Of a stretch of 64,000 bases of DNA, positions 43,425 through 63,371 are shown one piece after another. The position numbers and the translations under genes were made by a program. The number at the start of each line of letters is the position of its first letter. The first letter of the stretch is position 1. The notes under the pieces were generated by a model, which ran no database searches, was not told the DNA's origin, and was given only the letters and a program-made list of their open reading frames with translations. This DNA comes from an uncultured Actinomycetota bacterium (GTDB lineage Bacteria > Actinomycetota > Actinomycetes > Propionibacteriales > Nocardioidaceae), in assembly GCA_963781445.1 (NCBI GenBank), contig CAWAGS010000010.1, positions 171,995 to 235,994 of the forward strand, read 5' to 3'.

Positions 43425-43813
43425 GGCGTGGGCGGGCCGGGCACGTACGGCGCGAGCGCCGCCGCGACGGCCTCGAAACGCTCGCGGTCGAGCACGGCCC
43501 CTTCACGACGGACGTCGTCAGGATTGACCGGGATCAGGCGATTGAGGCGCACCTCGCTGGGCCGACCCTGGCTGTCCCACGGGCCGGAACCGATGTCGAA
43601 CCAGAACCGGCCGGCGTCGGCCTCCTGCTCGAGGTCCCGGTCGTGGTCCTTGGACGTCATCATCAGTCCGACGAGCTCCTCGTCGAGGCGACCGACAAGC
43701 AGGACGGGCCGGTCCTTGCCCTGCTCCGGATCGTCCTCGTAGGGAACCCACGTCCACACCACTTCGCCCGGATCGGGCTGTCCGTCAGGATGCGGGTCGT
43801 ACGTGATGTCCAC
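43421..43813 (-). CDS. PemK/MazF-like (SH3-fold toxin-like) protein, no cognate antitoxin visible
   Basis: YDPHPDGQPDPGEVVWTWVPYEDDPEQGKDRPVLLVGR resembles the actinobacterial PemK-like family. The stop overlaps the yihY start (ATGA at 43421-43424). Confidence 0.6.
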   Translation of the reverse strand: MDITYDPHPDGQPDPGEVVWTWVPYEDDPEQGKDRPVLLVGRLDEELVGLMMTSKDHDRDLEQEADAGRFWFDIGSGPWDSQGRPSEVRLNRLIPVNPDDVRREGAVLDRERFEAVAAALAPYVPGPPTP

Positions 43814-43867
43814 GTCGTCAGCCTGCCACAGCGGCGCCGAGACGCTGGTCGTTGCCGCTCCTCAGCG

Positions 43868-45491: not shown

Positions 45492-47321
45492 TCAGCGGGT
45501 CAGGTCGCGGTTCAGGGCGATGCGCAGCGTCCGCGCGAGGATGCGCGCATCGAGGCGCAGACTCCACTGGTCGACGTACTGCAAGTCCAGGTTGATCGAC
45601 TCCTCCTGCGTGAGCCGGGACCGGCCGCTGACCTGGCTGAGGCCGGTCAACCCCGGGCGCACCGTCAACCGTCGCCAGGTCCGGTCGTCGTAGCGCACGA
45701 CGGCGGCCGGAGGGGACGCACGCGGGCCGACGAGTGACATGTCGCCGTTGAGAACGTTCAGGAGTCGGGGCAGCTCGTCGATCGAGGTCCGGCGCAGGAA
45801 CCGCCCGAGCGGAGGGATGACCTGGCCCTCGCTGGCAGTCGAGATCGCGGTGCGGAACGTGTACATCACGTACGGGACGCCGTCGCGTCCGGTGCGGGCC
45901 TGCCGAAGGATCGCCGGCTGCTGCAGCGTGACGCGCAGCACGAGCGACAGGACGATGAACAACGGGGCGAGCAGCACCAGGGCGATCGCAGCAACCACTC
46001 GGTCGATGGTGTCCTTCACCACGGTCGCGATCAGGTGCTCGGCCGGCGGACGGATCGAGAATGCAGCGCGGCCGGCCACCTCCCTGGCACGCGTGTGGTC
46101 CGGGACGTCGGTGCCGTCGCTCAGCACCAAGCACGCGGCACCCGAGCGCCGCAGGGCCCACGCGAGGTCACGCAGCATGAAGCGCTCCAGCGAGTGCACC
46201 GAGACGACGACCACGGAGCATGCGTTGTTCCGGTTCACGGCGCCCAAGGCCTGCGGAATCAGCTCCGCGATCGACCCGTCAGGAAGCGCGGTCGTGTCAC
46301 CGCTCCACGCGCAGGTGGCCACGACCTTCACGTCGCGCCGATCCTTCCACTGCGCAGCGAGCCCGCAGACCGACGCCTCACTGCCGACCAGCACAGTCGG
46401 AATCCGGCGGAACAGCAATCGGTAAACCAGGGTGGCGACGGTGAGCGTCGCGGCTGATGCGAGCCCGACCATGAATCCATCGCGCAGCTCGGGCGAACCG
46501 TCGACGCCGGCCACGAACGCTGCTGCCGCGCCCACCGCGGCCAACCCGACGAACCAGGCGGCAGGTTGGAGCGACCTCGCCCGCGCGAACTCCGGGGTCA
46601 CCGCGAAGCTGGCGAACAGCCACAATGCCACCAGCCCGAGCGTGATCCGCTCGTGGCCGGCCGACAGGTCGACCCGGTGGTTGACGAGAAGCGCTGCACC
46701 AAGCGCGAGCGCATAGGCGAGCAATCCTCGATTCATGAACCCCGACAGGATCGTCCACACGTGAGGAAGGCGCCGCAGCCGCGGCTCGAGAATGACTGCT
46801 CCCCGCTCCATCCGGTACGAGGTCAATGGCCCCACCGCGGCCAGCAGCCGGACGGCCGCTCGCGTTCCCGGCGTCGACCGTCGTGCTGCCAACCGGGTGG
46901 CGATCGTTCCGTCACGGGTGCCATCGAGCAACCGGGCCAGCTCCTCCGCCGACTCCGCGACGTGCACCAGGCCCAGCTCGGCCAGCCGGTGGCACAGCAC
47001 CACCTGGTGGTTGTCGACGACTTCGTGATCCACCGGTATGCGCGGCACGACGATCGGGATCCGGCCCGCCTTCCGAGCGTCCATGACGCCACCGGCGCCA
47101 CCTTGCAGGACGATCGCGTCGGCGTCGCGGTAGTGGTCGAGCAGGTCCTTGGGCGCCAGCACCTCGTGGTTCTCGGCCCCTGACATCGGGCTGGTGGAAC
47201 CGTGCTGGAGAACCACGCGCGCGCGGTTCTCGGTCGTCCAGGGCTCGAGCCACTCGACGAATCTCTCGAACGGGTGGTGATACGTGCCGACGCTCGCGAC
47301 GACGGTGAACTGGCCGTTCAC
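45492..47321 (-). CDS. Fusion protein: Alg13-like GT28 C-terminal domain + WbaP-type polyprenyl-phosphate sugar phosphotransferase
   Basis: GTG at 47321 overlaps the upstream stop (GTGA). The first 170 aa or so (FTVVASVGTYHHPFERF...VLQGGAGGVMDA...IVVPR) are Alg13/PssE/Cps14G-like. TM segments follow, then IDELPRLLNVLNGDMSLVGPR...PGLTGLSQVSGRS, the bacterial sugar transferase core. It is one uninterrupted frame of 609 aa. Confidence 0.8.
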   Translation of the reverse strand: MNGQFTVVASVGTYHHPFERFVEWLEPWTTENRARVVLQHGSTSPMSGAENHEVLAPKDLLDHYRDADAIVLQGGAGGVMDARKAGRIPIVVPRIPVDHEVVDNHQVVLCHRLAELGLVHVAESAEELARLLDGTRDGTIATRLAARRSTPGTRAAVRLLAAVGPLTSYRMERGAVILEPRLRRLPHVWTILSGFMNRGLLAYALALGAALLVNHRVDLSAGHERITLGLVALWLFASFAVTPEFARARSLQPAAWFVGLAAVGAAAAFVAGVDGSPELRDGFMVGLASAATLTVATLVYRLLFRRIPTVLVGSEASVCGLAAQWKDRRDVKVVATCAWSGDTTALPDGSIAELIPQALGAVNRNNACSVVVVSVHSLERFMLRDLAWALRRSGAACLVLSDGTDVPDHTRAREVAGRAAFSIRPPAEHLIATVVKDTIDRVVAAIALVLLAPLFIVLSLVLRVTLQQPAILRQARTGRDGVPYVMYTFRTAISTASEGQVIPPLGRFLRRTSIDELPRLLNVLNGDMSLVGPRASPPAAVVRYDDRTWRRLTVRPGLTGLSQVSGRSRLTQEESINLDLQYVDQWSLRLDARILARTLRIALNRDLTR

Positions 47322-47767
47322 AGCACCAATCCGACGAGCTTGGACCGCGGGAGTCGCTCGCCGAGCTGCTCCCACTGCGTGAGGTAGTCATCGACAAAGG
47401 GGTAGACGAGGCGTCCGCTCAGCGAGGGCTTCGCAATGCGATCGACCGTCTCGAGGAAGACCGACCGGGCACCTACGCCGTGGGCCTGGAGGATGAACGG
47501 CACGGCGACGGCGGCGCCGGTGCTGAAGACGATGTCCGGCCGGAAGTCGCGCAGCACCTGATGCGCCAGCGCGGCGTTGCGCACCAAGTTCGGAATGTTG
47601 CGCTGGGTCGGCCAGTGACACGCGATCGCCCGCTCATCCGCGAGCTTCATCTGCGCGTCGGGCGTGGGACCGGTGACCCACAGCCGCTCGTGCTGCCCCC
47701 ACCACGGCTTGAGCGCGAGCGCTTGGGCGAGATGGCCGCCGGAGGAGCAGGCGATGAGGATCTTCAT
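47318..47767 (-). CDS. Alg14-like oligosaccharide biosynthesis protein (PssD/Cps14F-like GT partner)
   Basis: MKILIACSSGGHLAQALAL, WPTQRNIPNLVRN and PDIVFSTGAAVAVPF. The ATG at 47767 shares 1 nt with the GT2 stop. Confidence 0.8.
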   Translation of the reverse strand: MKILIACSSGGHLAQALALKPWWGQHERLWVTGPTPDAQMKLADERAIACHWPTQRNIPNLVRNAALAHQVLRDFRPDIVFSTGAAVAVPFILQAHGVGARSVFLETVDRIAKPSLSGRLVYPFVDDYLTQWEQLGERLPRSKLVGLVL

Positions 47768-48720
47768 CAGATTCCCTTTCCGAAGCGGTTGGCAACCCGT
47801 CCGACTGCATCGGCCGAGAGGAGGCGCCAGGAGATCGCCAGGGCGAGCCACGCCCGCAGGTTGCGCACGTCGTGGCGCAGGACCTGCCGAGCGATGCTCC
47901 GGGCCTGACGTCGTTGCTCGCCTGCGGCGTGCGCAAAGGCGATCTGGGACCGGATCCTGCCGGCGGCGCGCGGATCGGCGGCGATGTCGCCGTGCTTGGC
48001 GAGCAAGTACGTCAGCGCTTCGGCGTACCGGGCCCACTGACCGTAGAAGTAGGACTGCCCTTGCCACCGCACCGACACGAGCGCCTCGTTGACGAGCCGA
48101 ATGGGCGCAATTCCGGACGTCGTGAGCAGCATGTCGTAGTCCTCGCCGTAAGCCCCCGGGAGGCTCTCGTCGACGAGCCCGATCTCGTCGACGAGAGCAT
48201 GACGACGGAAGACGAAGCTGCTCGAGTGCAGCCCGGCCAGGCGATCGCGCACGAGATGGTCACGCGTCACGACGTCGACCGGGACCAGTCGCTCGTGCAG
48301 CCGGTGGCCGTCGTCGACGCGCATCGCCGTTCCGACCAGGCGAACATCGGCGTGCAGGTCGAACAACGGCATCTGGGCCGACAGCTTGCCCGGAAGCCAG
48401 GTGTCGTCGTCGTCGAGGAACGCGACGAACTCGTGGGCCGCGGCCAGGATGCCGGAGTTCCGCGCGCCGGCGAGGCCGCGGACTCGCCCGTTGACCATCG
48501 CCCGCATCGACCGGAGCGGACCGGTGTCGATGTCGGGCAGCTCAGGATCGCACCCGTCGAACACGACGATGATCTCGATCAGGCCGGGATAGTCCTGGTC
48601 GACGATGCTCTGCACTGCTTCGCGCATCAACACCGGACGCCGGTGAGTGGGAACGACCGTGGTGACCGGTGGGACGATCACCACGGCCGCGTTCGTGGGG
48701 GCGCCGATGCTCATCGTCAT
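47767..48720 (-). CDS. Family 2 glycosyltransferase
   Basis: ATG at 48720 (MTMSIGAP). VVIVPPVTTVVPTHRRPVLMREAVQSIVDQDYP, ARNSGILAA and FLDDDDTW (DxD). Confidence 0.85.
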   Translation of the reverse strand: MTMSIGAPTNAAVVIVPPVTTVVPTHRRPVLMREAVQSIVDQDYPGLIEIIVVFDGCDPELPDIDTGPLRSMRAMVNGRVRGLAGARNSGILAAAHEFVAFLDDDDTWLPGKLSAQMPLFDLHADVRLVGTAMRVDDGHRLHERLVPVDVVTRDHLVRDRLAGLHSSSFVFRRHALVDEIGLVDESLPGAYGEDYDMLLTTSGIAPIRLVNEALVSVRWQGQSYFYGQWARYAEALTYLLAKHGDIAADPRAAGRIRSQIAFAHAAGEQRRQARSIARQVLRHDVRNLRAWLALAISWRLLSADAVGRVANRFGKGI

Positions 48721-48897
48721 TCTGATTCGAGCCCTCGGCCGCCGGGGAACGAGCGCACCATCGCGCTCGAAGCGGGGGGAACGGCCGTGGTGACCGGTGG
48801 GACGATCACCACGGCCGCGTTCGTGGGGGCGCCGATGCTCGTCATTCTGATTCGAGCTCTCGGCCGCCCAGGAACGAGCGCAACATCGTGCTCGAGG
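48651..48897. repeat. Tandem duplication (about 125-bp period) of the cytidylyltransferase-stop/GT2-start junction
   Basis: Copy A at 48651-48772 and copy B at 48779-48897 align with a 3-bp indel and about 8 substitutions by eye. Both contain ...gatgctc(atc)gtcattctgattcgagc... Confidence 0.9.
48717..48845 (-). other. 42-codon chimeric mini-ORF created by the junction duplication (GT2 N-terminus + cytidylyltransferase C-terminus-like)
   Basis: It reads MTSIGAPTNAAVVIVPPVTTAVPPASSAMVRSFPGGRGLESE. Its ATG overlaps the TagD-like stop (48842-48845), and its TGA overlaps the real GT2 ATG (48717-48720). Confidence 0.4.
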
Positions 48898-49288
48898 TCT
48901 GGCGGGTGTACGGGAAGTAGAGGACTTCGGCACCCACGGCGTTCATCGCTCGCTCGAGGCGGTAGCCCTTGGGGGTGCCCTGCCAGTCGGAGCCTTTGAA
49001 GATGACCTCGAACGGACACTGTTGCCACACGTGGGTCTTGTCCTCGGCGCGATCGATGAGGACTTCGTCGACGATGCCGAGTGCAGAGATGATGTCGATG
49101 CGCTCGTCGCACGGGACGACCGGAGCACGACCCTTGACCTCGTCGGCATACTCGTCGCTCGCCACTCCGACGACGAGGTGTCGGCACCGCTGGCGGGCGC
49201 GGCGGAGAAGGTTCAGGTGCCCGACGTGGAACATGTCGAACACGCCGCTCGCGTACCCGATGCCATACGTCCTGTTCGGAGTGGGCAC
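48842..49288 (-). CDS. Glycerol-3-phosphate cytidylyltransferase-like (TagD-family HxGH nucleotidyltransferase)
   Basis: GYASGVFDMFHVGHLNLLRRA carries the HxGH motif. Length is 148 aa. Confidence 0.85.
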   Translation of the reverse strand: MPTPNRTYGIGYASGVFDMFHVGHLNLLRRARQRCRHLVVGVASDEYADEVKGRAPVVPCDERIDIISALGIVDEVLIDRAEDKTHVWQQCPFEVIFKGSDWQGTPKGYRLERAMNAVGAEVLYFPYTRQTSSTMLRSFLGGRELESE

Positions 49289-49435
49289 TGCTTCCCCTCA
49301 CTGCTCACCTTCGAAGAAGTGCTTCTTCAAACGTTCAGAGTGGGAAGCAGCGAGATCGTGACGCCGCGTGACACGAGTTCAGGGAAGTTTTCGTCAAAAG
49401 TGCCCACCGCCACCACTGAATCGTGATAGCAGCGC

Positions 49436-50356
49436 TCAGTGCATGGAGCGGTAGACACGCACATGGTCGACCACCAGCGCGGCCGGCAGCCGGGTGAGCT
49501 CGGGCCTCGCGGCCTCGACTCGCCCCCAGTACCGGCTGCCCACCTGCAGGTTGAGTCGAATGTTCACCCGTCCCCGCAGGGAGGAAGCCAGCCACGGCGC
49601 AGCGTCCGTCGCAACCGAGCCGGTCACGGCGCCGTCGAGACTGAACTTCAGGCAGGTCGGCGACCAGTCGAGGGCATAGACGTGGAAGTCCTCGGCGAGA
49701 GACGGTCCATTTGAGGCTGTCCCCCACCCGTGGAAACGACCGCCGCTGCCGGAGGTCTGATGGGTGTCCTCATGGATGTTCCACGCGTACATGCCCGGAC
49801 CGGCGCCCGGCTGATTGGCCGGCGTCCCCCACGCCTCCATGACGTCGATCTCGCCCGGTGCGTCATCGAAGCGCAGCCAGAAGGCCGGCCACAGACCTCG
49901 GGAGACCCCGTCCGCCACCGGCAGTCGAGCCCGGATCTCCCAGCGTCCGTACTCCTGCGAAAAATGACCGATGGTGTCGAGGTAGCCGGTGGAGTAGGCC
50001 CGCTCCCCGACCTTTTCGCGACGTGCCTCGATCACCAAGGTGCCGTCCCGGACCTCCACGTTGCGCGACTGGATGGCGGCCTGGTCGAAGGAGAGCTTGG
50101 TTCCGTCCCGGACTGTCCAGCGACTTCCGTCGACGGCCGTGCCGTCGAACTCATCAGACCAGGCGAGCTCGCCCTGTCCGGGCCGGGAGTAGTCGAGTCC
50201 GCTCAGCTCGGCAGCCGCACAGGCATGGCGGTCCGCGGCGGCCCGGGGCGACGGACCGGACTGCTCCGATACCCACAGCCACGCCCCCGCTCCGCCGGTC
50301 ACGAGGAGTCCCACCACTGCGAGCGCGGCTACGGCCGGCCCGCGCGTTGGCCTCAC
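49436..50356 (-). CDS. Glycoside hydrolase family 16 (laminarinase/ExoK-like) with N-terminal signal-anchor
   Basis: GTG at 50356 overlaps the upstream stop (GTGA). WSDEFDG, GLWPAFWL and GEIDVMEAWG (the ExDxxE catalytic motif). Confidence 0.85.
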   Translation of the reverse strand: MRPTRGPAVAALAVVGLLVTGGAGAWLWVSEQSGPSPRAAADRHACAAAELSGLDYSRPGQGELAWSDEFDGTAVDGSRWTVRDGTKLSFDQAAIQSRNVEVRDGTLVIEARREKVGERAYSTGYLDTIGHFSQEYGRWEIRARLPVADGVSRGLWPAFWLRFDDAPGEIDVMEAWGTPANQPGAGPGMYAWNIHEDTHQTSGSGGRFHGWGTASNGPSLAEDFHVYALDWSPTCLKFSLDGAVTGSVATDAAPWLASSLRGRVNIRLNLQVGSRYWGRVEAARPELTRLPAALVVDHVRVYRSMH

Positions 50357-52005
50357 TTCTTCGACTTCTTGGCCTTGTCCTTCTTCTCGTCCTTCTTCTT
50401 GTCCTTCTTCGCGTGGTCCTTCTTGTTGTCCTTGTCCTTCTTCGCGTGGTCCTTCTTCGCGTGGTCCTTCTTCGCGTGGTCCTTCTTCGCGTGGTCCTTC
50501 TTCGCGTGGTCCTTCTTCGCGTGGTCCTTCTTCTCGTGGTCCTTCGTATCCGGTCTGGCGTGCTTGTCGTCCTGCGCCTTGTCGGCCTGGGGTGGCTTCG
50601 CGCCCGGGTCAGCCTCCGGTGCCGTCGCGCCCACGTCGACCCGTGGCGTCACGCCGGGAATGGGCGTGCTTCCCGCCCAGGCGCGACGAGCGCTCCGCGC
50701 CCATGCCGGCCGCCCCCGTGCCGGCTGGCGACCCGACGAGGCCGCGGTGCGGTGGCCGATCACAGCGAGACGACGTCCGAACCACATGCCCCATACGGTG
50801 TAGCGCGGCCTCGTGGCACCCGACGTGGGAAGTGGTGACGGGAGCGCAGCTACCAGCGAAGAGGAGTCGACCTCGACTGGCGGCAGGTCCGTCGCAACGG
50901 AGGTCTCGTCGTCGCCAGCCGACTCGGACGGCATCTGTTGATCCGGTTCGACGTCCGCGACGGCCAGGCGGACGGTCTCGTTCGGCACCGTGGTCGTTCG
51001 GGATGCATGGTGCGGGGGTGACATCGTCACCGGGGCGGACACGGTGGGAGTGGACGGGACGAGGACCGCAGCGGTCATGGCAGCCGTCGAACCGACGGCG
51101 ACCAGGCTCGACTTGGCTGCGGCCACGGCGTCGGCGAGCCAGCCGCCCAGGAGCGAGGGCCCGATGGGGCCGGTGAGAACCGCCAGGAGTGAACCCGCAC
51201 CGATGGCGCCGAGCTGAGCATTGACCACCTCGAGCTCCAGGCAGACACCGACGCAGGCAGCGCACTTGTCGAGGTGCGCATCGATCATCTTCTCGTCGCG
51301 TGCCGAGGCCGTGCCACGGACATGACCGGCGAGCAGCCTGCGAGCGTTGACGCACTGCACGCCCGCACGATCGGCCTTGGTGTTGATGTGCTCGTGCAGG
51401 TAGGCCCTGCGCAGCCCTTCCCGGGCCCGCAACGCGAGAGCAGAGACACCGTTCGGCTTCAACCCGAGCAGGGGTGCGACCTCCTGCGGCTTCTCGCCGT
51501 TGACGTCGACGTGCCACAGCACGGTTCGCCAACGCTCTGGAAGTGACGTGAACGCGGCCACCACGAGATCGCGCTCGAACCCGTCCATCCGGCCGTGGCC
51601 GAACGGCACGCACATGTCGATGGTCGACGACTCGTCTGTGGGGCGGACCCGCTGGGTGGCCTTGGCCCGGCGACCTGCCTCGTGCCTGATGGAGTTGAAC
51701 AAGTAACCACGGAACGAGGTCCGGGGCCCGCGACCTTCCCTGAGCTGATGCAGCACCTGGGTGAAGCATTCGGAGACGATGTCCTTGGCGTCGACCGGGT
51801 TCGACAGGTAGGCGGCCAGGCGGTGCGCCACCTGCCGATACCGTTGGAACAGCACTTCGTACGCGTCGGCGTTGCCCCGTCGAACGAAGTCGAGCAAAGC
51901 TCCGTCGTCCACGCTGGACAGATCGGTCGACAAACCGGTCGAAGCCTCGGCCTCGTCCGCATTGTTGTCTTGGCCCACCCCTGAGCAAGGTCTCACGACG
52001 AACAT
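50353..52005 (-). CDS. Single-chain ECF-type sigma-70 / ZAS anti-sigma fusion with hydrophobic segments and Lys/His-rich repeat tail (550 aa)
   Basis: ATG at 52005 is preceded by AGGGGA. Region 2-like sequence is DIVSECFTQVL...FRGYLFNSIRH. Region 4 is LPERWRTVLWHVDVNGEKPQEVAPLLGLKPNGVSALALRAREGLRRAY. Then comes C-x25-HLDKCAAC, a hydrophobic stretch, and a (KKDHA)n tail. Confidence 0.8.
   Translation of the reverse strand: MFVVRPCSGVGQDNNADEAEASTGLSTDLSSVDDGALLDFVRRGNADAYEVLFQRYRQVAHRLAAYLSNPVDAKDIVSECFTQVLHQLREGRGPRTSFRGYLFNSIRHEAGRRAKATQRVRPTDESSTIDMCVPFGHGRMDGFERDLVVAAFTSLPERWRTVLWHVDVNGEKPQEVAPLLGLKPNGVSALALRAREGLRRAYLHEHINTKADRAGVQCVNARRLLAGHVRGTASARDEKMIDAHLDKCAACVGVCLELEVVNAQLGAIGAGSLLAVLTGPIGPSLLGGWLADAVAAAKSSLVAVGSTAAMTAAVLVPSTPTVSAPVTMSPPHHASRTTTVPNETVRLAVADVEPDQQMPSESAGDDETSVATDLPPVEVDSSSLVAALPSPLPTSGATRPRYTVWGMWFGRRLAVIGHRTAASSGRQPARGRPAWARSARRAWAGSTPIPGVTPRVDVGATAPEADPGAKPPQADKAQDDKHARPDTKDHEKKDHAKKDHAKKDHAKKDHAKKDHAKKDHAKKDKDNKKDHAKKDKKKDEKKDKAKKSKK
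50401..50550. repeat. 15-bp in-frame tandem array (gtggtccttcttcgc) encoding (KKDHA)n
   Basis: Five perfect copies lie at 50446-50520, flanked by degenerate copies on both sides. Confidence 0.9.
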
Positions 52006-52237
52006 CCCCTGATTCCATGCTTTTGCTGTCGCTCCGAGTGGTTGCAGAGCGCGCAGAGCATGTAACTGCGTGTGACAGCGAGCCAATCTAGCAGGAAACC
52101 AAGAAGCGCAACAGAGGTAAACGCAACGAATTTGCTGCCAAACCAGCGGTTCGAGCCTCCGCGCCGGCGTTTGGCGACGGATTCAGTAACGGCCAACCCA
52201 AGGACCAGAGGACTCGGCACCGTCTGGACCTGGGCTC

Positions 52238-54103
52238 CTACTTCTCCCCGCCGGCCTTGTGGCGCTTGGTCGATTTGCGAGCCTTGTGAGACTTGGTCGA
52301 CTTGTGGGACTTGGTCGGCGGGTGGGACTTGGTCGACGTGTGGGACTTGGTCGATCTGTGGGTCTTGGAGCTCTGCTGGGCCTTCGATGCCTCGTACGAC
52401 CTCGGCTGATGAGCCTTCGCGGCGTCGGCCTGGTGACCCCGATGAGGCGCGCTGGCACCGGTTCCGCGGGTGCCGGACGACCAACCATCGTCGACCGTCC
52501 GCGCTTGAGCGGACTCCGATGTCTTCTGGGTCGTCGTGACCTTCTGCGCCTTGTGGGCCTTGTGGGCCTTGTGGGCCTTGGGTGCCCTGGACGCCTTGCG
52601 GAGTCCGGCACCGTCGGCGCCCGTGGTGACCGCCGGACTCTCGGTGACCGTGCCTCGCACAGCGGCTTCAGCGATGGTGTCGACCAGCTTGTCCAGGGGT
52701 GGAAGACCAACCGCCATCGCCGCCTTGAACCCAGACGCGTCGATGGAGACGGGCGCGCCCGACGAGTCGACCGTCAGCGTCACTGGTGGCCTGCCGCCGG
52801 CGACAGTCACGGTGATCGGCAGGCCTGCACCGGTTCCCGTGGCCTCACCCAGGGAAGCAACGAGCTGCAACCCGCCGGCCACCGCTCTGCTGACACCAGC
52901 CTCCGCCGCCTCGATCGGTGCGGACACCGCTGCGGTGACCTCCCGCCCGACCTCTCCGACCCCCGCCGGCACGGCCGCGCCGGCCTCCCGCTCCTGGCCG
53001 TACTCGGCCGGCGCGGCCGTGCCCACCTCCCGCTCCTCAGTCAGCTCCTCCACGACCGGTGGCTTGACGTCTCGCCGCTGCGGTCCGAACTCGCCCGCCA
53101 GCTCTGTCGTCAGCTCGGAGACCGGAGGGCTGGCGGCGAACGAACGGCTCTGCAGCACATCGACCGGCTCCGGCTCGGCACTCGAGCCGGGCATGACGGT
53201 GAGTGCCGTCGCCACCACGGCAGCAGTCGAACCCATGGCCACGAGGGCCGACTTGCTGGCGATCGTCGGCCTCCCGACCGAACCGTGATGTGTCGGCGGG
53301 GCGGTCGGATCGAGGATGGTCGCGAGGAACCCTCCCACGGCGCCGACGTGGAGATTGACCTCCTTGAGCTCGAGGTACAGGCCCACACAGGTGCCGCACG
53401 CATCGAGGTGCGGATCGACGACCCCGATGTCGCGCGGTGTGGCCGAGGAACGGACATACCGAGCCAGCCGGTGGCGAACGTCACGGCAGGCGGCGCTGGT
53501 CCGCTTCCTGGTCGTCCGAGCAGAGTGCTGGTGGAGGTAGGCCTGACGAAGTCCTTCGCGGGCCCGGCGAGCCAGCGCGGAAGCTCCGCTCGCAGACATC
53601 TCCAGGATCGGCGCGAGCTCCCGCGGCTTCGTCCCGTTGACCTCCACGTGCCACAGAACGGATTGCCACCGCCCGGGCAGTGACTCGAACGCAGCCCGCG
53701 CGATGTCGTCGTCGAAGCTCTCCATGGGGCCGGCGCCGAAGGGGACGATGCGGTCGATGCCTCCCGAATCCTCGGCCCGTCGGGCTGCCTCGTGACGCAA
53801 GGTCGTGAACAGGGTGCCACGAAAGGACGTTCCGCGACCGTGTCCGCCATGAAGCTGGTTCACGACGAGGGCGAAGCTCTCGGCGACGACGTCGTTCGCC
53901 ACCGCGGCACTCGACAGATGGGACGCCAGCTGCTGGGCAGGGCGCCGGTATCGCTGAAAGAGCACGGCGTAGGCATCGGCGCTGCCCTGACCGATCACGT
54001 CCAGCAGAGCCTCGTCGCTGAGCCGGCCCAGCTCGTGCGCGGCCGGGTCGGGGTGACGGCGGCGTGCGTTCGCGGCCAACGCACCGCGGTTGTTCTTGGG
54101 CAT
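52238..54103 (-). CDS. Single-chain ECF-type sigma-70 / ZAS anti-sigma fusion with long C-terminal extension and His/Lys/Ser/Thr repeat tail (621 aa)
   Basis: ATG at 54103 with AGGA upstream; an alternative upstream ATG lies at 54379. DVVAESFALVV...FRGTLFTTLRH, then LPGRWQSVLWHVEVNGTKPRELAPILEMSASGASALARRAREGLRQAY, then C-x25-HLDACGTC. The tail carries KAHKAHKAHKAQK and (HxSTKS)x5. Confidence 0.8.
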   Translation of the reverse strand: MPKNNRGALAANARRRHPDPAAHELGRLSDEALLDVIGQGSADAYAVLFQRYRRPAQQLASHLSSAAVANDVVAESFALVVNQLHGGHGRGTSFRGTLFTTLRHEAARRAEDSGGIDRIVPFGAGPMESFDDDIARAAFESLPGRWQSVLWHVEVNGTKPRELAPILEMSASGASALARRAREGLRQAYLHQHSARTTRKRTSAACRDVRHRLARYVRSSATPRDIGVVDPHLDACGTCVGLYLELKEVNLHVGAVGGFLATILDPTAPPTHHGSVGRPTIASKSALVAMGSTAAVVATALTVMPGSSAEPEPVDVLQSRSFAASPPVSELTTELAGEFGPQRRDVKPPVVEELTEEREVGTAAPAEYGQEREAGAAVPAGVGEVGREVTAAVSAPIEAAEAGVSRAVAGGLQLVASLGEATGTGAGLPITVTVAGGRPPVTLTVDSSGAPVSIDASGFKAAMAVGLPPLDKLVDTIAEAAVRGTVTESPAVTTGADGAGLRKASRAPKAHKAHKAHKAQKVTTTQKTSESAQARTVDDGWSSGTRGTGASAPHRGHQADAAKAHQPRSYEASKAQQSSKTHRSTKSHTSTKSHPPTKSHKSTKSHKARKSTKRHKAGGEK

Positions 54104-54468
54104 CTGACGATCCTGGAGGTGCTCCCGCCCCGGCGCCCGCCATGGGCTCAAGCGGATGGGGGCCGGCTGCGCGCACACGATGGCAACGACCGCAGCGACA
54201 CCCAACCTAGCGCCGAGCGGACGCTTTTGGCTGCAGGGTTTCGATGAAAATTCCCCGGATTCCTTCGAAAAGATGGCCCCACGGACTTCCTCCGACGAAT
54301 TCGGCGAAATGGCGTCACGAACTGCGTCACGGTGACTCTTGCTCTCCACGAAAATCGCCTTCCAGGTCGTGGCGTGCACCAGGTTGTCGCTCCTCGCGTC
54401 ACGATCGCGCGGCGCCCGCCTCCTTCACATGAGGCGCGGAACATCCCGCGCACCACTGACGGAGGACC

Positions 54469-55743
54469 GTGATGGATGAACCGAGACAGCCGGTGCAGTT
54501 GTCCGACCTGCTTGCTGCGCTGAGGCGTCACGCGAACGTCCTGGCTGTGGCGGCCGGGATCGGGCTCGTGCTCGGGATCATGGCCGCGTTCGTGATTCCG
54601 ACGCGGTACTCCACGACCGCCACGGTCGCTGTGTATCCCTTGAAGACGGACCCGCTCAGCTCCGCCTCCGGCACCTCCACGGTCGACATGGCCACCGAAG
54701 GCTCGCTCGCGGAGTCACAGATGGTGGCCGCGGCAGCAGCCACGAAGCTGGAGCCGAAGCACGGCTTCACCACGCAAGATGTCGTCGACGCCGTCTCGGT
54801 GGAGACACCGGAGGACTCCCAGGTGCTGCGCATCTCGTACTCGGCCTCCTCGGCGGCCCGGGCCGCCGACGGTGCCAACGAAGTGGCCGCGGCCTACCTG
54901 CTGACCCGGCGCAACGAGGCGACCGGACTCGCCAACCGACTCAAGAAGACGGTGCAAGGGCAGGTCGAGGAGCTGAAGGGTCTCAAGAATGAAGGCGCGC
55001 TGGTCAAGCGCACCCGGCAGGTGCAGGCCGATGAGCTCGGTACCCGGCTCGCCGAGCTGGGCGGACTCGAGTTCGACCCCGGACGAATCGTCGGGCGGGC
55101 GACTCCGCCGGACGGGCCGTCCACGCCCGGCGTCCTTCCGCTCGGCCTCGCCGGTGCCTTCCTGGGCCTGTTCGTCGGCGTGCCGATCGCGCTGACCCGC
55201 AAGGAGCTGCCCTCCAACATCGGCAACCTCGAGGGCCTCGACGCACCCGACGAGCAGCTCGTGCTGGACGGCACCAGCGACGCCGACCGTGCCGACACCT
55301 GGGACATCGCGACGTTCATGCTGAACATCCCGGCAGACCTGCCCGACGATGCGCCGTACACGGTTCTCGTCGATGCCGAACCGGGCAGTGGGCCGCCGGC
55401 GCCCGGCCAGGAGTTCGCCGACGCGCTGACGCGACGCGGCTGGGGGTCCAGGTTCGTCGACGCCGGCGGAGTCGACGAGGGCCGCATCAACCGCGGCTGG
55501 CCGAACGACCGCAAGCGCAAGTCGTGGGACGGCAGGATCGTCGTCATCGACACCTCGACGCTCACGTCGGATGCCCACCGGGTCGAGATCGCGAGCCGAT
55601 GCGACGCGGTGATGCTCACCCGCACGACAGACGACGCTGCCGACTCGTTGCGCAACCTCTCAGAGATGCTCAGGGCGCGGGAGATCGACGTCAGTCTCAC
55701 CACGCTGTTCCCGGCGCCCGAGCACAGCCTGCTCGATCACTGA
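54469..55743 (+). CDS. Wzz/PCP-family chain-length-determinant-like protein with degenerate (P-loop-less) kinase-like C-terminal domain
   Basis: TM1 LAVAAGIGLVLGIMAAFVI, a periplasmic coiled region, and TM2 LPLGLAGAFLGLFVGVPIAL. The C-terminal domain has Walker-B-like RIVVIDTS, but AEPGSGPPAPG sits where GxxxxGK[ST] is expected. Confidence 0.7.
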   Translation: MMDEPRQPVQLSDLLAALRRHANVLAVAAGIGLVLGIMAAFVIPTRYSTTATVAVYPLKTDPLSSASGTSTVDMATEGSLAESQMVAAAAATKLEPKHGFTTQDVVDAVSVETPEDSQVLRISYSASSAARAADGANEVAAAYLLTRRNEATGLANRLKKTVQGQVEELKGLKNEGALVKRTRQVQADELGTRLAELGGLEFDPGRIVGRATPPDGPSTPGVLPLGLAGAFLGLFVGVPIALTRKELPSNIGNLEGLDAPDEQLVLDGTSDADRADTWDIATFMLNIPADLPDDAPYTVLVDAEPGSGPPAPGQEFADALTRRGWGSRFVDAGGVDEGRINRGWPNDRKRKSWDGRIVVIDTSTLTSDAHRVEIASRCDAVMLTRTTDDAADSLRNLSEMLRAREIDVSLTTLFPAPEHSLLDH

Positions 55744-55777
55744 CCCGACGCCGACCGGTCGTCTCGTCGGCGCACCC

Positions 55778-56578
55778 TCAGGTGAGGGTGACGTGGCGAA
55801 GGTGCTCGTTGACGTCCTCGAGCTCGCCGAAGACCGCGGTGCAGGACGTACAGGACTCCAGATGAGCGTGCAGCCCGATCGCATCGCGCGACCGGACCTT
55901 GTGACGCACCAAGGCAGCCAGCTGGTCGCGGACCTCGCGGCACCGCGTGCCGAGTTGATTCCCGTCCGACGCCACGTGCTGCGCGACGTAGGCCGTCCGG
56001 AGGCCCTCGCGAGCCCGGTACGCCAAGGCGGAGACTCCATTGGGGGTCAGCTCGAGGATCGGTGCGATCTCGCTCGGACGACGCCGTTCGACGTCGATGT
56101 GCCACAGGACCGTGCGCCACCGTGCCGGCAGCGTCTCGAACGCCGCCCACACGACCTCGCGCTCGAACCCGTCCAGCTCGCCGCTCTCGGGGGACAAGCG
56201 CGACTCCATCATGGTGATGTCATTAGTCGGCACGACCCGCTGCCGCGCCTTGGCGCGCCGGCCCACGCCGTGGCGGATGGAGGTGAACAAGTAGGCGCGG
56301 AACGCGCGTTCCGGACCGCGTCCGCGGAGCAGCTGGTCGAGAACACCGGCGAAGGCCTCGGCGACGATGTCATCGACATCACCGGATCGACTCAAGTACC
56401 GAGCCAGCCGTTGCGCGGGATGCCGATAGCGGGAGAAGAGTGAGGCGTACGCGGCGGACCGGCCCTCGCGGACCATGTCGAGAAGCTGACCATCGTCGAG
56501 CTGATCGAGATCGTCATCGTGATCGTGATCGTGATCGAGCTCTTCGGGAAACTCAGACTCAGGACTGGTGAACTGCAC
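55778..56578 (-). CDS. Soluble single-chain ECF-type sigma-70 / ZAS fusion (266 aa) with acidic (DH)n N-terminus
   Basis: GTG at 56578. DIVAEAFAGVL...FRAYLFTSIRH, then LPARWRTVLWHIDVERRRPSEIAPILELTPNGVSALAYRAREGLRTAY, then C-x25-HLESCTSC. It ends about 20 aa later with no TM segment. Confidence 0.8.
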   Translation of the reverse strand: MQFTSPESEFPEELDHDHDHDDDLDQLDDGQLLDMVREGRSAAYASLFSRYRHPAQRLARYLSRSGDVDDIVAEAFAGVLDQLLRGRGPERAFRAYLFTSIRHGVGRRAKARQRVVPTNDITMMESRLSPESGELDGFEREVVWAAFETLPARWRTVLWHIDVERRRPSEIAPILELTPNGVSALAYRAREGLRTAYVAQHVASDGNQLGTRCREVRDQLAALVRHKVRSRDAIGLHAHLESCTSCTAVFGELEDVNEHLRHVTLT

Positions 56579-56604: not shown

Positions 56605-58200
56605 TCAGCTACCGGGGCCTGTTTTCCGGGAGGAAATCGCCGCTTGTGGCGGATAAACCACCGTATCGGATACTGCATCCGGGCGCGAGCATTCCATCAC
56701 CTCCGTTTTGGCCGGCGGGGCCGGGACGCGATCTCGCAGGGTCATCATCTGGACCAGACCCAGCGCGTGCCGAGTCCGCCAGCCGAGCCAGACGTAGCCG
56801 ACGCCGAGAACGACGGTGGTGATCGCGGCCGTCGTCCCGGACGTCCCGAACAGCGTGCGTGCCGCCAGCGCCGGAAGCGCGATGACCGCCAGGGGTTGGA
56901 CCATCGCCACCTTCAGGTGACGGCCCGAAGGGCGAATCCCCATCAAGCCCTGCACCTGCCAGACGACGACCAGCGTGTCCGCGACGATGGTGACCGCCCA
57001 CGCGATCGCCGCTCCCGTGATGCCCCAGATCGGGATGAGGAGCAGGTCGAGCGTGATGTTCAGCAGCAGCGCTCCGGTCTTGTCGGCGAGCTGCCACGTG
57101 CTCCGCCCGCCCATCAGCAAAATGGTCTGGACGGTGCCGGCGGCCACCGACAGCGCCATGGCAGCGGCGAGGACCGCCATCGGCGTCGCGCCGGAGCTGA
57201 AGCCAGGACCGAAGATCCGCAGGACCGGCTCGGCGAAGACCGCCACCAGGATGAAGAACGGCCAGGCCACCCAGATCATCGTGGCCGTGACGACCTCATA
57301 GATCGCGCGAGCATGCGCGAGGTCGCCGCGCGCCAGTGCCGCGCTGATCTGTGGCCCCACCACGATCCTCGCGGCCTGCTGGACGATCTCGCTGGCCCGC
57401 AGGCAACGCGTGACGACGGCGTACACGCCCGCTTCGGCGGGCGATGCCAACGCTCCGACCAGGATCACGTCGATCCACTCCAGCAGGATCTCCACGCAGG
57501 CGGTGACGCCGCGCGCTGCGGTGAAGCCCCAGAAGGCCGCCCCGATCTCCTGTCGCCGCGCAGGACCGACCGCCGGCGTCCGGGGCGATCCACGCCGCAC
57601 CAGGCGGACCGCGACGACCGTCGCAAGCGCCAGCACCAGCGGGACCGGGGACAGCCAGGCGGCGAGCAGCCCGCTGACACCCCATCCGGCCAGCACGGCC
57701 AGACCGACCGCCCCCAGTCGGCCGAGCGGCAGGAGGACGTTCTGCAGTGCCGGATAGGTGAGGACGTCGTCGAAGCCGCGCGTGAGCCCGAGCAGCACGG
57801 CCACCATGGAGAGCGAGCCGGCCGCCACCGACGCCGCGACGAGCACCCCGGGCTCGACACTGCGGACCGGATCGACCGCGAGCACGATCGCAGCGGTCGC
57901 CACCACCAGCATTCCGACGACGAGGAGGACCGGACGAACGGCCGACCGGAGCAGCACCCGCGCTTCCTCCGGCCGACCGACCGCTCGGGCTGCGGAGACG
58001 AACCGCACCAGTCCGGTGTCGGCGCCCAGCTCCGCCGTGTTGGCAGCGATCAGGAAGGCCGCGACCACGAGGAAGTACGTGCCGGTGCCCTCGGCACCGA
58101 GATGACGCCCGACCAGCGCAGCGATCGCGAGGTTCACGGACGCGCCCACGGCCCCGGCCGCGACGTTCAGGACGGCAGAGCCACCCATCCCTGGCGTCAC
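56605..58200 (-). CDS. Wzx-type (MOP superfamily) polysaccharide flippase
   Basis: About 14 hydrophobic segments. The N-terminal GTYFLVVAAFLIAANTAELGADTGLVRFVS is typical of polysaccharide biosynthesis flippases. Start is GTG 58200 or ATG 58188. Confidence 0.8.
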   Translation of the reverse strand: MTPGMGGSAVLNVAAGAVGASVNLAIAALVGRHLGAEGTGTYFLVVAAFLIAANTAELGADTGLVRFVSAARAVGRPEEARVLLRSAVRPVLLVVGMLVVATAAIVLAVDPVRSVEPGVLVAASVAAGSLSMVAVLLGLTRGFDDVLTYPALQNVLLPLGRLGAVGLAVLAGWGVSGLLAAWLSPVPLVLALATVVAVRLVRRGSPRTPAVGPARRQEIGAAFWGFTAARGVTACVEILLEWIDVILVGALASPAEAGVYAVVTRCLRASEIVQQAARIVVGPQISAALARGDLAHARAIYEVVTATMIWVAWPFFILVAVFAEPVLRIFGPGFSSGATPMAVLAAAMALSVAAGTVQTILLMGGRSTWQLADKTGALLLNITLDLLLIPIWGITGAAIAWAVTIVADTLVVVWQVQGLMGIRPSGRHLKVAMVQPLAVIALPALAARTLFGTSGTTAAITTVVLGVGYVWLGWRTRHALGLVQMMTLRDRVPAPPAKTEVMECSRPDAVSDTVVYPPQAAISSRKTGPGS

Positions 58201-58201
58201 G

Positions 58202-59482
58202 TCAGGGTCCGTCGTCGTCGTCCAGGCCGTAGCGACGCCGGAGCAGCAGCGCCGCCACGAGGACCACCGAGAGCATCTGGATGATGTCGAGCCCGTACAC
58301 GAAGACGGCCAGGCTCGCGACGACCAGCACGCTGTGCAGCACGAGCTGGATGTCGGAGGGCGCTCGCCAGGTGTGCAGCGTCGTGCCCCACAGGAAGAGC
58401 AGGAAGAAGGTCAGGCCCACGAAACCGTGGCTGAACATGATCGTCCAGACGTAGCCCTGGGTCCCCACTGAGAGGTCCTGGAACTCCGATGGCCGGGGAG
58501 CGCCGTAGCCCAGCAGAGGGCTCTGGAGCGTCCGGCTGATCGTCTCGGTGTAGAGCGAGAACCTGGCCTCGCTGGACTGACCGTACTGCTGTCGCGTCGA
58601 CAGCTGGTCGACGAGGCCGCGCGAGAGCACGAAGGTCACGGTTGCCAGCCCGACGGCGGCCAGGCCCAGCACCGGTGCCGCACGGTTGCGGATCGCCAGC
58701 CGGATCACGACATAGGTCACGGCCACCCCGAGCGCGGCGAACATGCCGCGGTTCGAGGAGGCGACGGCGGGGGGCACCATCGCCACGGCGGTGATCAGGA
58801 GCAGCACGCGGGTGAACCACGTTCGGGCGAGCATGAAGGCCGCCACCGCGACCGGGGTCAGGAGCAGGATTGCGACGCCCCAGCTGTTGGCGTACGGGAA
58901 CGGCGCCGACGGCCGGAGGAAGACCTCGGGCGAGCCGTACGGGTACTGGATCTCGGCCAGTGGCGGGAAGAACAGGTCGTGCACGTACTCGTTCTGCGCG
59001 AGCCACTGCGGCATCAGCAGGCCGACCGGCGTCGTGATGCGGCCGTGCGGCACCAGCATGCCCATGATGCCGCCGACGACCGTGAACACCCACACGAACG
59101 TCAGGGCGTTCACCACTGACCGCACGGTGAGCCGACGCCGGGCGCTCACGGTGTAGGCCAGCGCGACCAGCGCGAACAGCACGATCGTGAAGCGGTAGAG
59201 GAACCCGAGGGCACGAGGGGCGGAATCCACCATGATCGCGGTCGGCACGATCCAGACGGCGAAGGCCAGCAGCGCCCCGACGCCGGGGACGATGACCACG
59301 TTGCGCTGCTGGGCGAGGAACGCGACCATCACGATGGTCATCGTGATGGCGGCCGGCACCACCGTGACGCCGGCCAGCCACATCACCGGGAAGCCCCACA
59401 ACATCACCAGCACCGGCCAGGCCGGCAGGTCATCGGTGCTCAACCGCATCGGCCGGCGGTCGGCGGCCACCTCGACGGTCAT
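58202..59482 (-). CDS. O-antigen ligase/polymerase-family (Wzy-like) membrane protein
   Basis: ATG at 59482 overlaps the upstream stop (ATGA). It has 10 or more TM segments and a large loop with NRGMFAALG, an O-antigen ligase domain-like region. Confidence 0.75.
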   Translation of the reverse strand: MTVEVAADRRPMRLSTDDLPAWPVLVMLWGFPVMWLAGVTVVPAAITMTIVMVAFLAQQRNVVIVPGVGALLAFAVWIVPTAIMVDSAPRALGFLYRFTIVLFALVALAYTVSARRRLTVRSVVNALTFVWVFTVVGGIMGMLVPHGRITTPVGLLMPQWLAQNEYVHDLFFPPLAEIQYPYGSPEVFLRPSAPFPYANSWGVAILLLTPVAVAAFMLARTWFTRVLLLITAVAMVPPAVASSNRGMFAALGVAVTYVVIRLAIRNRAAPVLGLAAVGLATVTFVLSRGLVDQLSTRQQYGQSSEARFSLYTETISRTLQSPLLGYGAPRPSEFQDLSVGTQGYVWTIMFSHGFVGLTFFLLFLWGTTLHTWRAPSDIQLVLHSVLVVASLAVFVYGLDIIQMLSVVLVAALLLRRRYGLDDDDGP

Positions 59483-60189
59483 GGCGTGACTCCGAGGCGC
59501 AGCGTCTGCCGCTTGCGCTGGAGGGTCGCGAGAAGCAGCAGCAGGTTGCCCACGGCGAGCACGAGGTATCCGACCAGGAACAGCGGCGTCCAGGCCCACA
59601 GCAGGAAGGCGGCGTTGACGACACCCGCATCGGCCGGGGTCTGGAGCCAGGCGGCCCGGCGACCGGGGACCGCCCCGGTGGTCGCGACGCCGAGCTGGTC
59701 GGCCAGCAGCTGCGCGAAGAACCGCACCGACGCGACGACCGCAAAGGCCAGCGGCACCAGCAACCAGGTGTCGCCGACGTCCGTGTGCCGGAACAGTGCC
59801 ACTGCAACGCCGAGGTGCAGCACCAGGATTCGGCCGGCATCCACCACGTGGTCGAGCCATTCACCGGCCACGGAGCCGCGGCCGGTGAGGCGAGCGAGCT
59901 GGCCGTCAGCGGAGTCGAAGGCGAACCCGAGCTGCAGGAGCAGCGTCACGGTGATCGCGACCGCCACGGACGGCTCGAACGTCACCAGAACCGACATCCC
60001 GGCCCCAACCGTCAAGGCACTCAGAGCCGTCATCTGGTCGGGCGAAGCGTCGTACCGTGCTCCGACCGCAGCGATCACCCGGCCGAGGCGCCGGTTGACC
60101 GCACGCATGTAGAACGGCACGCCGGTGCCGGGCTTCTGCGCGTCGGCAAGCCGGGTGTACGACTCGCGGACCTCCGCGACCAGGTTCAT
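59479..60189 (-). CDS. CDP-alcohol phosphatidyltransferase-family protein
   Basis: ATG at 60189 is preceded by AGGGGA. DSADGQLARLTGRGSVAGEWLDHVVD matches D-G-x2-A-R-x8-G-x3-D-x3-D. Confidence 0.8.
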   Translation of the reverse strand: MNLVAEVRESYTRLADAQKPGTGVPFYMRAVNRRLGRVIAAVGARYDASPDQMTALSALTVGAGMSVLVTFEPSVAVAITVTLLLQLGFAFDSADGQLARLTGRGSVAGEWLDHVVDAGRILVLHLGVAVALFRHTDVGDTWLLVPLAFAVVASVRFFAQLLADQLGVATTGAVPGRRAAWLQTPADAGVVNAAFLLWAWTPLFLVGYLVLAVGNLLLLLATLQRKRQTLRLGVTP

Positions 60190-60193
60190 TCCC

Positions 60194-63046: not shown

Positions 63047-63371
63047 CCTTCTGTCGGGGGTCAGAGACTGCGTTCGCGGGCGCGCAACAGTGCCCACTAC
63101 CCATCCTGAGTCGACAGTTCCTCAGTCGTGACGGCGTTCTGAGCCCATGGTTTCCGCACGAGCGGCGCCGATTGACGATCAGCGGCTCCAGGACTCCAGC
63201 TGCCGGACGTGGGCCGCAACTTGCGTCGCCCGCGGGGAGGAGGCGCGAACGCGTCGTGGGCGCGGTACAGATGCCGCGTCAACAGGGCCGGATCGACGCC
63301 CGGGGGAATCGCGACGTCGCGCGTTCGACCCATGACTCGGAGTTTACGTCAGGTCCATGGCACCCACCGGG

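Follow-up and report, generated by a model that had tools for sequence, protein, structure and literature searches.

Three paralogous single-chain sigma/anti-sigma proteins in an actinobacterial glycopolymer locus and a candidate promoter of their family

The present analysis concerns three open reading frames (ORFs) on the minus strand of a 64-kb stretch of DNA (64,000 nucleotides, G+C ~69%; hereafter the window) from an uncultured actinobacterium of the family Nocardioidaceae. Each ORF encodes an extracytoplasmic function (ECF) sigma factor and a zinc-associated anti-sigma (ZAS) domain in one polypeptide: P1 (50353–52005, 550 aa counted from the ATG) and P2 (52238–54103, 621 aa) continue through a predicted transmembrane (TM) segment into a low-complexity tail, whereas P3 (55778–56578, 266 aa) has no predicted TM segment. 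We consider it likely that P1, P2 and P3 are diverged paralogs of a one-chain sigma/ZAS family, that the motif CGTCAY-N15-GNCTC is the promoter of this family, and that the glycopolymer locus in which the three genes lie is their regulon; the locus would be their regulon because the motif is taken as their putative promoter. Comparison with related loci further indicates that the triad arose in this lineage, by expansion of a regulator that is conserved within the locus.

Domain architecture of P1, P2 and P3

Hidden Markov model (HMM) searches with Pfam matched Sigma70_r2, Sigma70_r4_2 and zf-HC2 in each of the three proteins, in agreement with the initial annotation, which had read three minus-strand, single-chain ECF sigma/ZAS fusions from the bare sequence. 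The Sigma70_r2 score exceeds the gathering score in P1 and P3, Sigma70_r4_2 stays below it in all three, and zf-HC2 passes its cut-off of 22.2 bits in P1 alone (24.8 bits, with 21.3 for P3 and 17.8 for P2). The NCBIfam model TIGR02937 (sigma70-ECF) is passed by P1 (57 bits) and P3 (65 bits) and failed by P2 (23 bits), the most divergent paralog; P2 nonetheless retains every family-invariant residue, and its match to the family profile has E<1e-20. In P1, sigma region 2 occupies aa 52–119 (51649–51852; PF04542, 30 bits) and the region 4 helix-turn-helix, with its family invariants, aa 148–196 (51418–51564; PF08281, 22 bits). By sequence, all three proteins contain sigma regions 2 and 4 only, without region 3 or 1.1, which is the composition of ECF (group 4) factors, and the closest solved sigma relative is sigmaE (1or7_A, E=5.5e-10). 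Translation of P1 may begin at a GTG three codons downstream of the ATG, a start favoured by ribosome-binding-site spacing.

The ZAS domain follows in the same chain, with the zinc ligands C218, H244, C248 and C251 in P1 (51220–51354), C206, H232, C236 and C239 in P2 (53354–53488), and C213, H239, C243 and C246 in P3 (55784–55948), as placed by Pfam and alignment and, for P3, also by structure prediction. Alignment bears out the identical C-x25-H-x3-C-x2-C spacing that had been noticed in all three, and the domain has the marks of a ZAS, namely Hx3Cx2C with a fourth ligand (C or H) ~25 residues upstream and, in the structure prediction for P3, three helices, where three to four are typical of the class. 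The collinearity claimed for the N-terminal regions also stands, over ~265 aa rather than the ~200 aa first estimated, with a core identity of 44–52%.

This one-chain arrangement is shared by a large actinobacterial family, in which the ZAS domain is joined to the sigma core ~10 residues past region 4. A search with P3 returned 245 proteins, mainly from Aeromicrobium and other Nocardioidaceae, nearly all of which carry sigma and zf-HC2 in a single chain. Among 1.84 billion representatives at 50% identity, 1,672 matched at E<=1e-30, and the best 150 of these 1,672 all align through the ZAS domain (lengths 253–1,638 aa). The C/H/C/C zinc ligands are present in 256 of 265 sampled proteins, region 2 and zf-HC2 occur in one chain in 42 of 43 long relatives, and a genome scan gave at least 590 matches in Nocardioides, Kribbella, Pseudonocardiaceae, Cellulomonas, Demequina and others.

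Beyond the ZAS domain, P3 terminates 20 aa past its last Cys and has no hydropathy segment, whereas one such segment is predicted in P1 (aa 297–319, 51049–51117; hydropathy and alignment, with putative topology) and one in P2 (aa 283–306, 53186–53257; hydropathy maximum 1.88). In both proteins the hydropathy peak is KSxLVAxGSTAA, a post-ZAS segment that they have in common. Tails of ~230 aa (P1) and ~315 aa (P2) follow, which are Pro/Ser/Thr/acid-rich at first (proline at 17% is confined to residues 317–400 of P1) and Lys/His-rich at the end, and in which Pfam finds no domain. The initial description of P1 and P2 as extending through hydrophobic segments into low-complexity tails, with P3 ending about 20 aa past the zinc motif, is thereby upheld. 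Tandem repeats with units of 15, 18 and 9 nt encode the tail ends; a 15-nt one, encoding (KKDHA)n, closes the P1 tail (50401–50545; 9.5 copies by Tandem Repeats Finder). Five terminator-like matches on the plus strand at 50442–50524 are this repeat read on the opposite strand, not terminators.

An AlphaFold2 (AF2) model of P3, built on a 74-sequence alignment, is all-helical (pLDDT 86.8), with sigma2, sigma4 and a three-helix ZAS at residues 211–265. Foldseek comparison of the model with the Protein Data Bank (PDB) returned ECF sigma chains only, and whole-model superposition was poor: sigma chains from anti-sigma complexes gave TM-scores of 0.45–0.50 with root-mean-square deviations (rmsd) of 11–16 Å, and RNA-polymerase-bound chains gave 0.30–0.44 with 13–20 Å. 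The sigma part was best matched by the sigma chains of SigW-RsiW (5wuq), SigK-RskA (4nqw) and sigmaE-RseA (1or7). The somewhat better fit to anti-sigma-bound chains does no more than hint at a closed state.

The glycopolymer locus and its promoter-like motif

The three genes were initially placed inside a Wzx/Wzy cluster, and this cluster is confirmed as a Wzx/Wzy/Wzz glycopolymer locus. On the minus strand, one operon encodes a fibrinogen-like/propeller protein, a CDP-alcohol phosphatidyltransferase, Wzy and Wzx (56605–63097; domain searches and synteny) and probably has P3 as its last gene, and a biosynthetic operon encodes a cytidylyltransferase, a GT2, an Alg14-like protein and an Alg13-like/Bac_transf priming transferase (45492–49288; Pfam). 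A Wzz-like chain-length determinant lies on the plus strand (54469–55743), divergent from P2. Downstream of P1, a minus-strand ORF (49436–50356) encodes a membrane-anchored, laminarinase-like GH16 enzyme whose GTG start overlaps the stop codon of P1 (GTGA at 50353–50356); this overlap, which had been noted at the outset, is confirmed and is conserved in a related species (locus L001). The GH16 protein has an N-terminal membrane anchor (aa 3–31), a PF00722 match of 52 bits and similarity to laminarinase 8xph_A in the PDB (E=2e-24 across residues 59–302), and its sequence fits the beta-jelly-roll fold and the catalytic ExDxxE motif of the family (here EIDVME).

Alignment of the regions upstream of the propeller operon in five loci exposed the motif CGTCAY-N15-GNCTC. 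In the window, an exact copy (CGTCAC-N15-GACTC; 63108–63133, minus) precedes the propeller/CDP-alcohol transferase/Wzy/Wzx/P3 operon, and a copy is present there in eight of eight related loci. Two plus-strand copies precede wzz, one 131 nt upstream (54313–54338; conserved in L001) and one 47 nt upstream (54397–54422; equivalents in L001, L006, L084 and L087). A further copy with one mismatch (CACTC for GNCTC; 49338–49363, minus) lies between GH16 and the cytidylyltransferase operon, at a place where L083, L084 and L086 have exact copies. The three exact matches in the window are all intergenic, within the locus and oriented toward the downstream gene; other motif spacings gave no intergenic match within the window locus. 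Across ten clade loci (199 kb), 19 exact matches were found against 3.6 expected (P=1e-8), of which 18 sit at three promoter positions, and omitting the five discovery sites still leaves 14 matches (P=3e-5). Both tandem copies before wzz (54313–54422, plus) are conserved in L001, and the upstream one has a second CGTCACGG inside its spacer, as is also seen in the Kribbella loci L045 and L065.

Loci of other genera contain five exact matches to the 15-spacer form in 1.47 Mb, together with a 17-spacer form, CGTCAY-N16-YGNCTC, situated on the divergent strand 75–220 nt ahead of the sigma gene. The 17-spacer form is exact in 27 of 76 such loci, with constant spacing, and a version with up to one mismatch accompanies the sigma gene, at a distance of at most 300 nt, in 55 of the 76; the background rate is 0.045 per 300 nt. 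Its position beside the sigma gene suggests that the motif is the family's own promoter. The simplest reading of CGTCAY-N15-GNCTC is thus a candidate promoter of the sigma family, because the motif follows the sigma gene across contexts with constant spacing and orientation and has no TAnnnT −10 element.

The 17-spacer form points at a conserved, divergent partner gene of 270–320 aa with no Pfam match, which is present in 74 of the 76 loci of other genera (L007–L082; for example, L028:8904–9716(−), L073:9109–9990(−) and L035:8854–9819(−)). The partner protein contains SCEDPLTGL...HLRxRLxELYR, which we take to resemble the start of a GGDEF domain. The gene is absent from the window and from the Aeromicrobium loci, in which wzz occupies that position.

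The motif was not found upstream of P1, P2 or the single sigma gene of related loci, so that direct autoregulation, judged by a cognate promoter upstream of the factor's own gene, is not indicated by the sequence. P3 may be autoregulated indirectly through its operon, to which it probably belongs because it starts 26 nt after Wzx. A housekeeping-type extended −10 candidate, TGC-TAGATT, was read by eye upstream of P1 (52085–52093, minus), and in six related loci a comparable, conserved TGn-nAnnnT block precedes the sigma gene; upstream of P2, TAGGTT (54204–54209, minus; conserved in L001) is a putative housekeeping-type −10 element. A strict sigma-70 consensus scan of the window yielded no promoters, and dyad enumeration in sigma-gene upstream regions recovered coding-sequence conservation only. 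The classical ECF consensus GGAAC-N15-18-CGT was rejected as a candidate, with 9 matches against 13.4 expected, and its match overlapping the P3 start is probably due to chance.

The flanks of the window (PemK, BrkB, CSD, MFS, DUF3027) are syntenic with Aeromicrobium genomes, and one gene order recurs in Aeromicrobium sp. SMF47, A. fastidiosum and six loci from metagenomes or metagenome-assembled genomes (L003–L006, L086 and L087, several of which are partial): propeller, CDP-alcohol transferase, Wzy, Wzx, wzz (opposite strand), a single sigma-ZAS gene, cytidylyltransferase, GT2 and priming transferase. This sigma-ZAS gene is the only sigma gene present in all ten Aeromicrobium-relative loci examined; it is short in SMF47 (257 aa, without a TM segment), long in A. 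fastidiosum (445 aa), and long and followed by GH16 in L086. The initial annotation was not aware of any description of this locus architecture and had called for a survey of relatives for the triad. The architecture is not confined to this locus: Aeromicrobium relatives as a rule have a single sigma-ZAS gene, in a constant place within this glycopolymer locus. The triad is found only in the window lineage (the window, L001 and L002).

In a neighbour-joining tree (no bootstrap), P1 groups with the L086 type (60% identity), P2 is sister to the P1/L086-type group, and P3 is a lone deep branch limited to the window, L001 and L002. Short forms, defined as ending within 40 aa of the last Cys, account for 57 of 112 clade members and for 3 of 144 representatives of the wider family. 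P3 had been described as reduced to a soluble sigma-ZAS; that it is a recently reduced copy of its neighbours is contradicted by its deep branch, its identity of 44–52% and the TM-less state of about half of the clade members; judged by sequence, P3 is an old TM-less paralog, and the three proteins are anciently diverged. Outside the clade, the gene is single-copy, stands in unrelated contexts (SRAP/aroA/rsgA or GT87/GtrA) and has Pro-rich extensions of ~200–1,900 aa with Ig-like, cadherin-like, PKD, fn3 or RGI-lyase beta domains.

Some further features of the locus can be added. The propeller gene (60194–63097, minus; ~970 aa), which is kept at the same position in all related loci, encodes a fibrinogen-like YCDxxxxGGGW domain (NF040941, 75 bits) and gives weak beta-propeller (DUF5122) matches. 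The gene at the Wzx position (56605–58200, minus) has no Pfam match and a weak SpoVB-like NCBIfam match (E=6e-8), and its orthologs in L083, L084 and L086 match Polysacc_synt (PF01943). In SMF47 and A. fastidiosum, a small Sigma70_r2-like gene (173–177 aa; L083:16024–16545 and L084:17248–17781) lies downstream of the locus beside the PemK toxin gene; it is absent from the window, since just 55 nt are available at that spot (43813–43868).

Proposed regulation and competing readings

The following scheme can be proposed, with the motif as the putative promoter of these factors. At rest, the ZAS domain would mask the core-binding surfaces of sigma. Housekeeping-type promoters would drive the expression of P1 and P2, and a single TM helix would anchor each in the membrane, with a disordered tail, Pro/Ser/Thr-rich and then Lys/His-rich, outside the cell; an external C-terminus is favoured because the extensions of relatives carry Ig-like, cadherin-like, PKD and fn3 domains. 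An envelope signal would free P1 and P2, probably via proteolysis, as proposed for ECF52, and P1 would be translationally coupled to the membrane-anchored GH16. P3, which lacks a predicted TM segment, would answer a cytoplasmic cue acting on the zinc-thiolate site, and its place as the last gene of the motif-driven operon could give rise to positive feedback. The initial proposal that the module controls the locus has gained sequence-based support, from the motif before the operons and from the related version that follows the family elsewhere, to the extent of a candidate promoter.

Several observations weigh against this scheme. In the window alone, three motif matches against 1.2 expected are not significant (12 of 100 shuffles reach three), the −10-like element of the copy before the cytidylyltransferase operon carries a mismatch, the Aeromicrobium clade and other genera have spacers that differ in length by 2 nt, and the motif could be read by another sigma factor or bound by a transcription factor. 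P2 is sub-threshold for all three Pfam domains. The P3 model has a pTM of only 0.47 for the domain arrangement and Foldseek superposition on anti-sigma-bound sigma chains is poor (rmsd 11–12 Å), so that same-chain autoinhibition is putative. In an AF2 model of P1 residues 1–400, pLDDT drops below 50 past residue 276, and for P1 and P2 alike the TM count and the placement of the tail are putative. Finally, the basic tails evolve in a near-neutral manner relative to L001, with a ratio of nonsynonymous to synonymous substitution rates (dN/dS) of about 0.8 (P2 0.82, P1 ~0.8), and so may not be specific sensors.

An unlikely alternative is that these are real sigma-ZAS factors which do not control their own locus, acting instead in a general stress response (e.g., thiol/redox, in the manner of SigR-RsrA), and that the motif belongs to another regulator. 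Their CHCC set has the same C-x25-H spacing as RsrA, whose zinc ligands are C11, H37, C41 and C44, P3 weakly matches TIGR03988 antisig_RsrA (E=9e-4, under the model cut-off), and a short homolog (L088) stands in an unrelated context. Pleiotropic effects far from its own locus have also been described for SCO4117 of Streptomyces coelicolor (PMC5826349). A stress role of this kind is nevertheless hard to square with a related motif that adjoins the sigma gene in 55 of 76 other-genus loci of differing context, with the concentration of 18 of the 19 exact matches at promoter positions within the locus, or with the sigma-ZAS gene being the only sigma gene in all ten Aeromicrobium-relative loci, a second, small one occurring only in L083 and L084.

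A cross-regulating network, in which the ZAS domain of one paralog sequesters the sigma of another, as the initial annotation had thought conceivable, and in which P2 or P1 might serve mainly as a membrane decoy or anti-sigma factor, appears decidedly improbable. The linker between region 4 and ZAS is short (about 6–10 residues) and may hinder same-chain binding, P2 combines weak sigma scores with a 9-aa deletion within its sigma2–sigma4 linker, and two tandem motifs precede wzz; moreover, P1, P2 and P3 may compete for the same promoters because their region 4 recognition helices are near-identical in the alignment. In most relatives, however, the locus contains a single copy, so members of the family must be able to function with no paralog to pair with, and the P2 core is under purifying selection with all family invariants kept. 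More speculative, and doubtful enough to be offered only in passing, is a three-input, single-promoter-class homeostasis circuit in which the tails of P1 and P2 would read polymer amount or charge, GH16 would make or trim the ligand, P3 would amplify, and cross-paralog ZAS–sigma binding would act as a buffer. If this were true, P1 and P2 would be constitutively made, tethered sensors with rapidly evolving polycationic Lys/His-rich tails.

Our preferred reading of three diverged, functional paralogs draws on comparison with the two metagenome contigs that carry the same triad. L002 represents a near-same strain (P1 identical save for one extra KKDHA unit; P2 99% identical, with one KAH unit fewer), and the tail ends of P1 and P2 differ in length because the copy number of the coding repeats differs (window 50401–50545 and 52540–52580). 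L001 represents a related species (P3 89% and P2 80% identity), against which dN/dS is 0.17 for P3, 0.25 for the P2 core and 0.30 for the P1 core, with 0.09 for Wzz and 0.20 for GH16 as comparison genes; by this measure, all three cores are under purifying selection. That P1 and/or P2 are decaying duplicates, leaving one functional copy only, is therefore very unlikely. Decay would fit the tail dN/dS of ~0.8, repeat numbers that vary among near-identical strains, a disrupted tail frame in L001 and the low HMM scores of P2. Against it stand core values of 0.25–0.30 at a distance of ~0.3 substitutions per synonymous site, three assemblies with intact reading frames, and the retention of every zinc ligand and family invariant; in L086, moreover, a P1-type gene with downstream GH16 is the sole copy.

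The disrupted frame concerns the P1 ortholog at L001:15440–15970 (window 50340–50880), which has +1 nt and −4 nt indels, owing to which the called L001 protein reads the AAGAAGGAC repeat as QEG, not KKD, over ~130 codons. This may be a true change or a long-read assembly error; between the two sequences, the window reading of the P1 tail is the consistent one. The idea that an Arg/Trp-rich stretch of the P1 tail is read out of frame was rejected, because correcting for the +1/−4 indels shows this frame to be open and conserved in L001 too.

The initial annotation had also raised the possibility of an assembly frameshift, with separate sigma and anti-sigma genes in relatives; even though the source assembly looks metagenomic and L001 has those compensating indels, such an artefact is next to impossible, since the sigma4–ZAS junction is uninterrupted in the three paralogs, in L001 and L002, in the isolates SMF47 and A. 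fastidiosum and in hundreds of further proteins, and since the long relatives are single-chain in all but one case. From this conservation, the triad in L001 and L002 and the dN/dS pattern, we conclude that the fusion is genuine, the cores are functional and the tail ends are loosely constrained.

Relation to known sigma/anti-sigma systems

Fused regulators of this type have been catalogued. The groups ECF48, ECF52 and ECF53 of Actinobacteria combine a fused zinc-finger anti-sigma part with one or two TM helices, and proteolytic activation is presumed (PMC8999054). In SCO4117, an ECF52 member, a Pro-rich linker and a carbohydrate-binding module come in addition (PMC5826349), and some ECF52 and ECF53 members are reported with GH or CBM (carbohydrate-binding module) domains (PMC10766802). 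The mention in the initial annotation of an ECF52 group with an S. coelicolor member agrees with this literature (PMC5826349; PMC8999054). ECF287 is an actinobacterial group with a Cys-rich C-terminal extension (PMC7826278). One further paper (PMC7671368) contains nothing on ZAS fusions, and a search for work on Aeromicrobium ECF or anti-sigma factors gave no Aeromicrobium paper among the matches listed.

P1 and P2 resemble ECF52 in being restricted to Actinobacteria and in joining a sigma2/sigma4 core, zf-HC2, a predicted TM segment and a long low-complexity extension in one chain, as well as in their carbohydrate link; proteolytic release is proposed for ECF52. All three proteins have the zinc finger in the C-terminal extension that marks this group, whereas P1 and P2 lack the carbohydrate-binding module and their tails end in Lys/His-rich repeats rather than in a Pro-rich linker with an NPCBM; the glycoside hydrolase is here a separate, putatively translationally coupled gene, and P3 has neither a predicted TM segment nor an extension. 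SCO4117 also differs in adjoining atrA instead of lying in a glycopolymer locus, and the motif published for it, CSGYN-17-SRHA, does not resemble CGTCAY-N15-GNCTC (PMC5826349). ECF48, ECF53 and ECF287 of the Casas-Pastor 2021 classification share with P1, P2 and P3 a C-terminal zinc-finger or Cys-rich extension on an actinobacterial ECF core, and a separate anti-sigma gene is usually absent from these groups (PMC7826278; PMC8999054). Set against the published group descriptions, then, P1 and P2 appear to fit the ECF48/52/53 kind apart from having no carbohydrate-binding module, P3 is set off by its lack of a predicted TM segment, and ECF287 could be the short, P3-like form.

Two-protein systems offer a second comparison. 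SigR-RsrA of Streptomyces and SigH-RshA of Mycobacterium share the CHCC set, Hx3Cx2C and the C-x25-H spacing, and RsrA, like the ZAS of P3, is soluble; however, these pairs consist of two proteins, in contrast to the single chain here, and similarity to the RsrA model is weak. The ZAS-TM-extracytoplasmic layout of P1 and P2 mirrors that of RsiW-type anti-sigma factors, although SigW-RsiW, SigK-RskA and sigmaE-RseA are separate polypeptides, with the anti-sigma factor encoded downstream of the sigma gene.

To our knowledge, ECF48, ECF52 and ECF53 have been catalogued while their mechanism is almost wholly unexplored, and only SCO4117 has been studied, its promoter and signal not being established. 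The regulator type described here is known, and the analysis overturns no current view; its audience will mainly be specialists in ECF signalling and the actinobacterial cell envelope. What is new is the fixed position of the gene in the Aeromicrobium locus, the lineage-limited triad, the frequency of TM-less forms in the clade (rare elsewhere) and the distribution of the motif, and the most useful addition is the candidate promoter with its candidate regulon. The family supplies a sharply defined candidate promoter, CGTCAY-N15-GNCTC in the Aeromicrobium clade with a 17-spacer version elsewhere, a compact and obvious candidate regulon in the form of one Wzx/Wzy glycopolymer locus, and natural variants with and without a membrane anchor at the same genomic position. 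Because it offers these three things together, the mechanism of a one-chain sigma/anti-sigma factor would be directly testable in this family.

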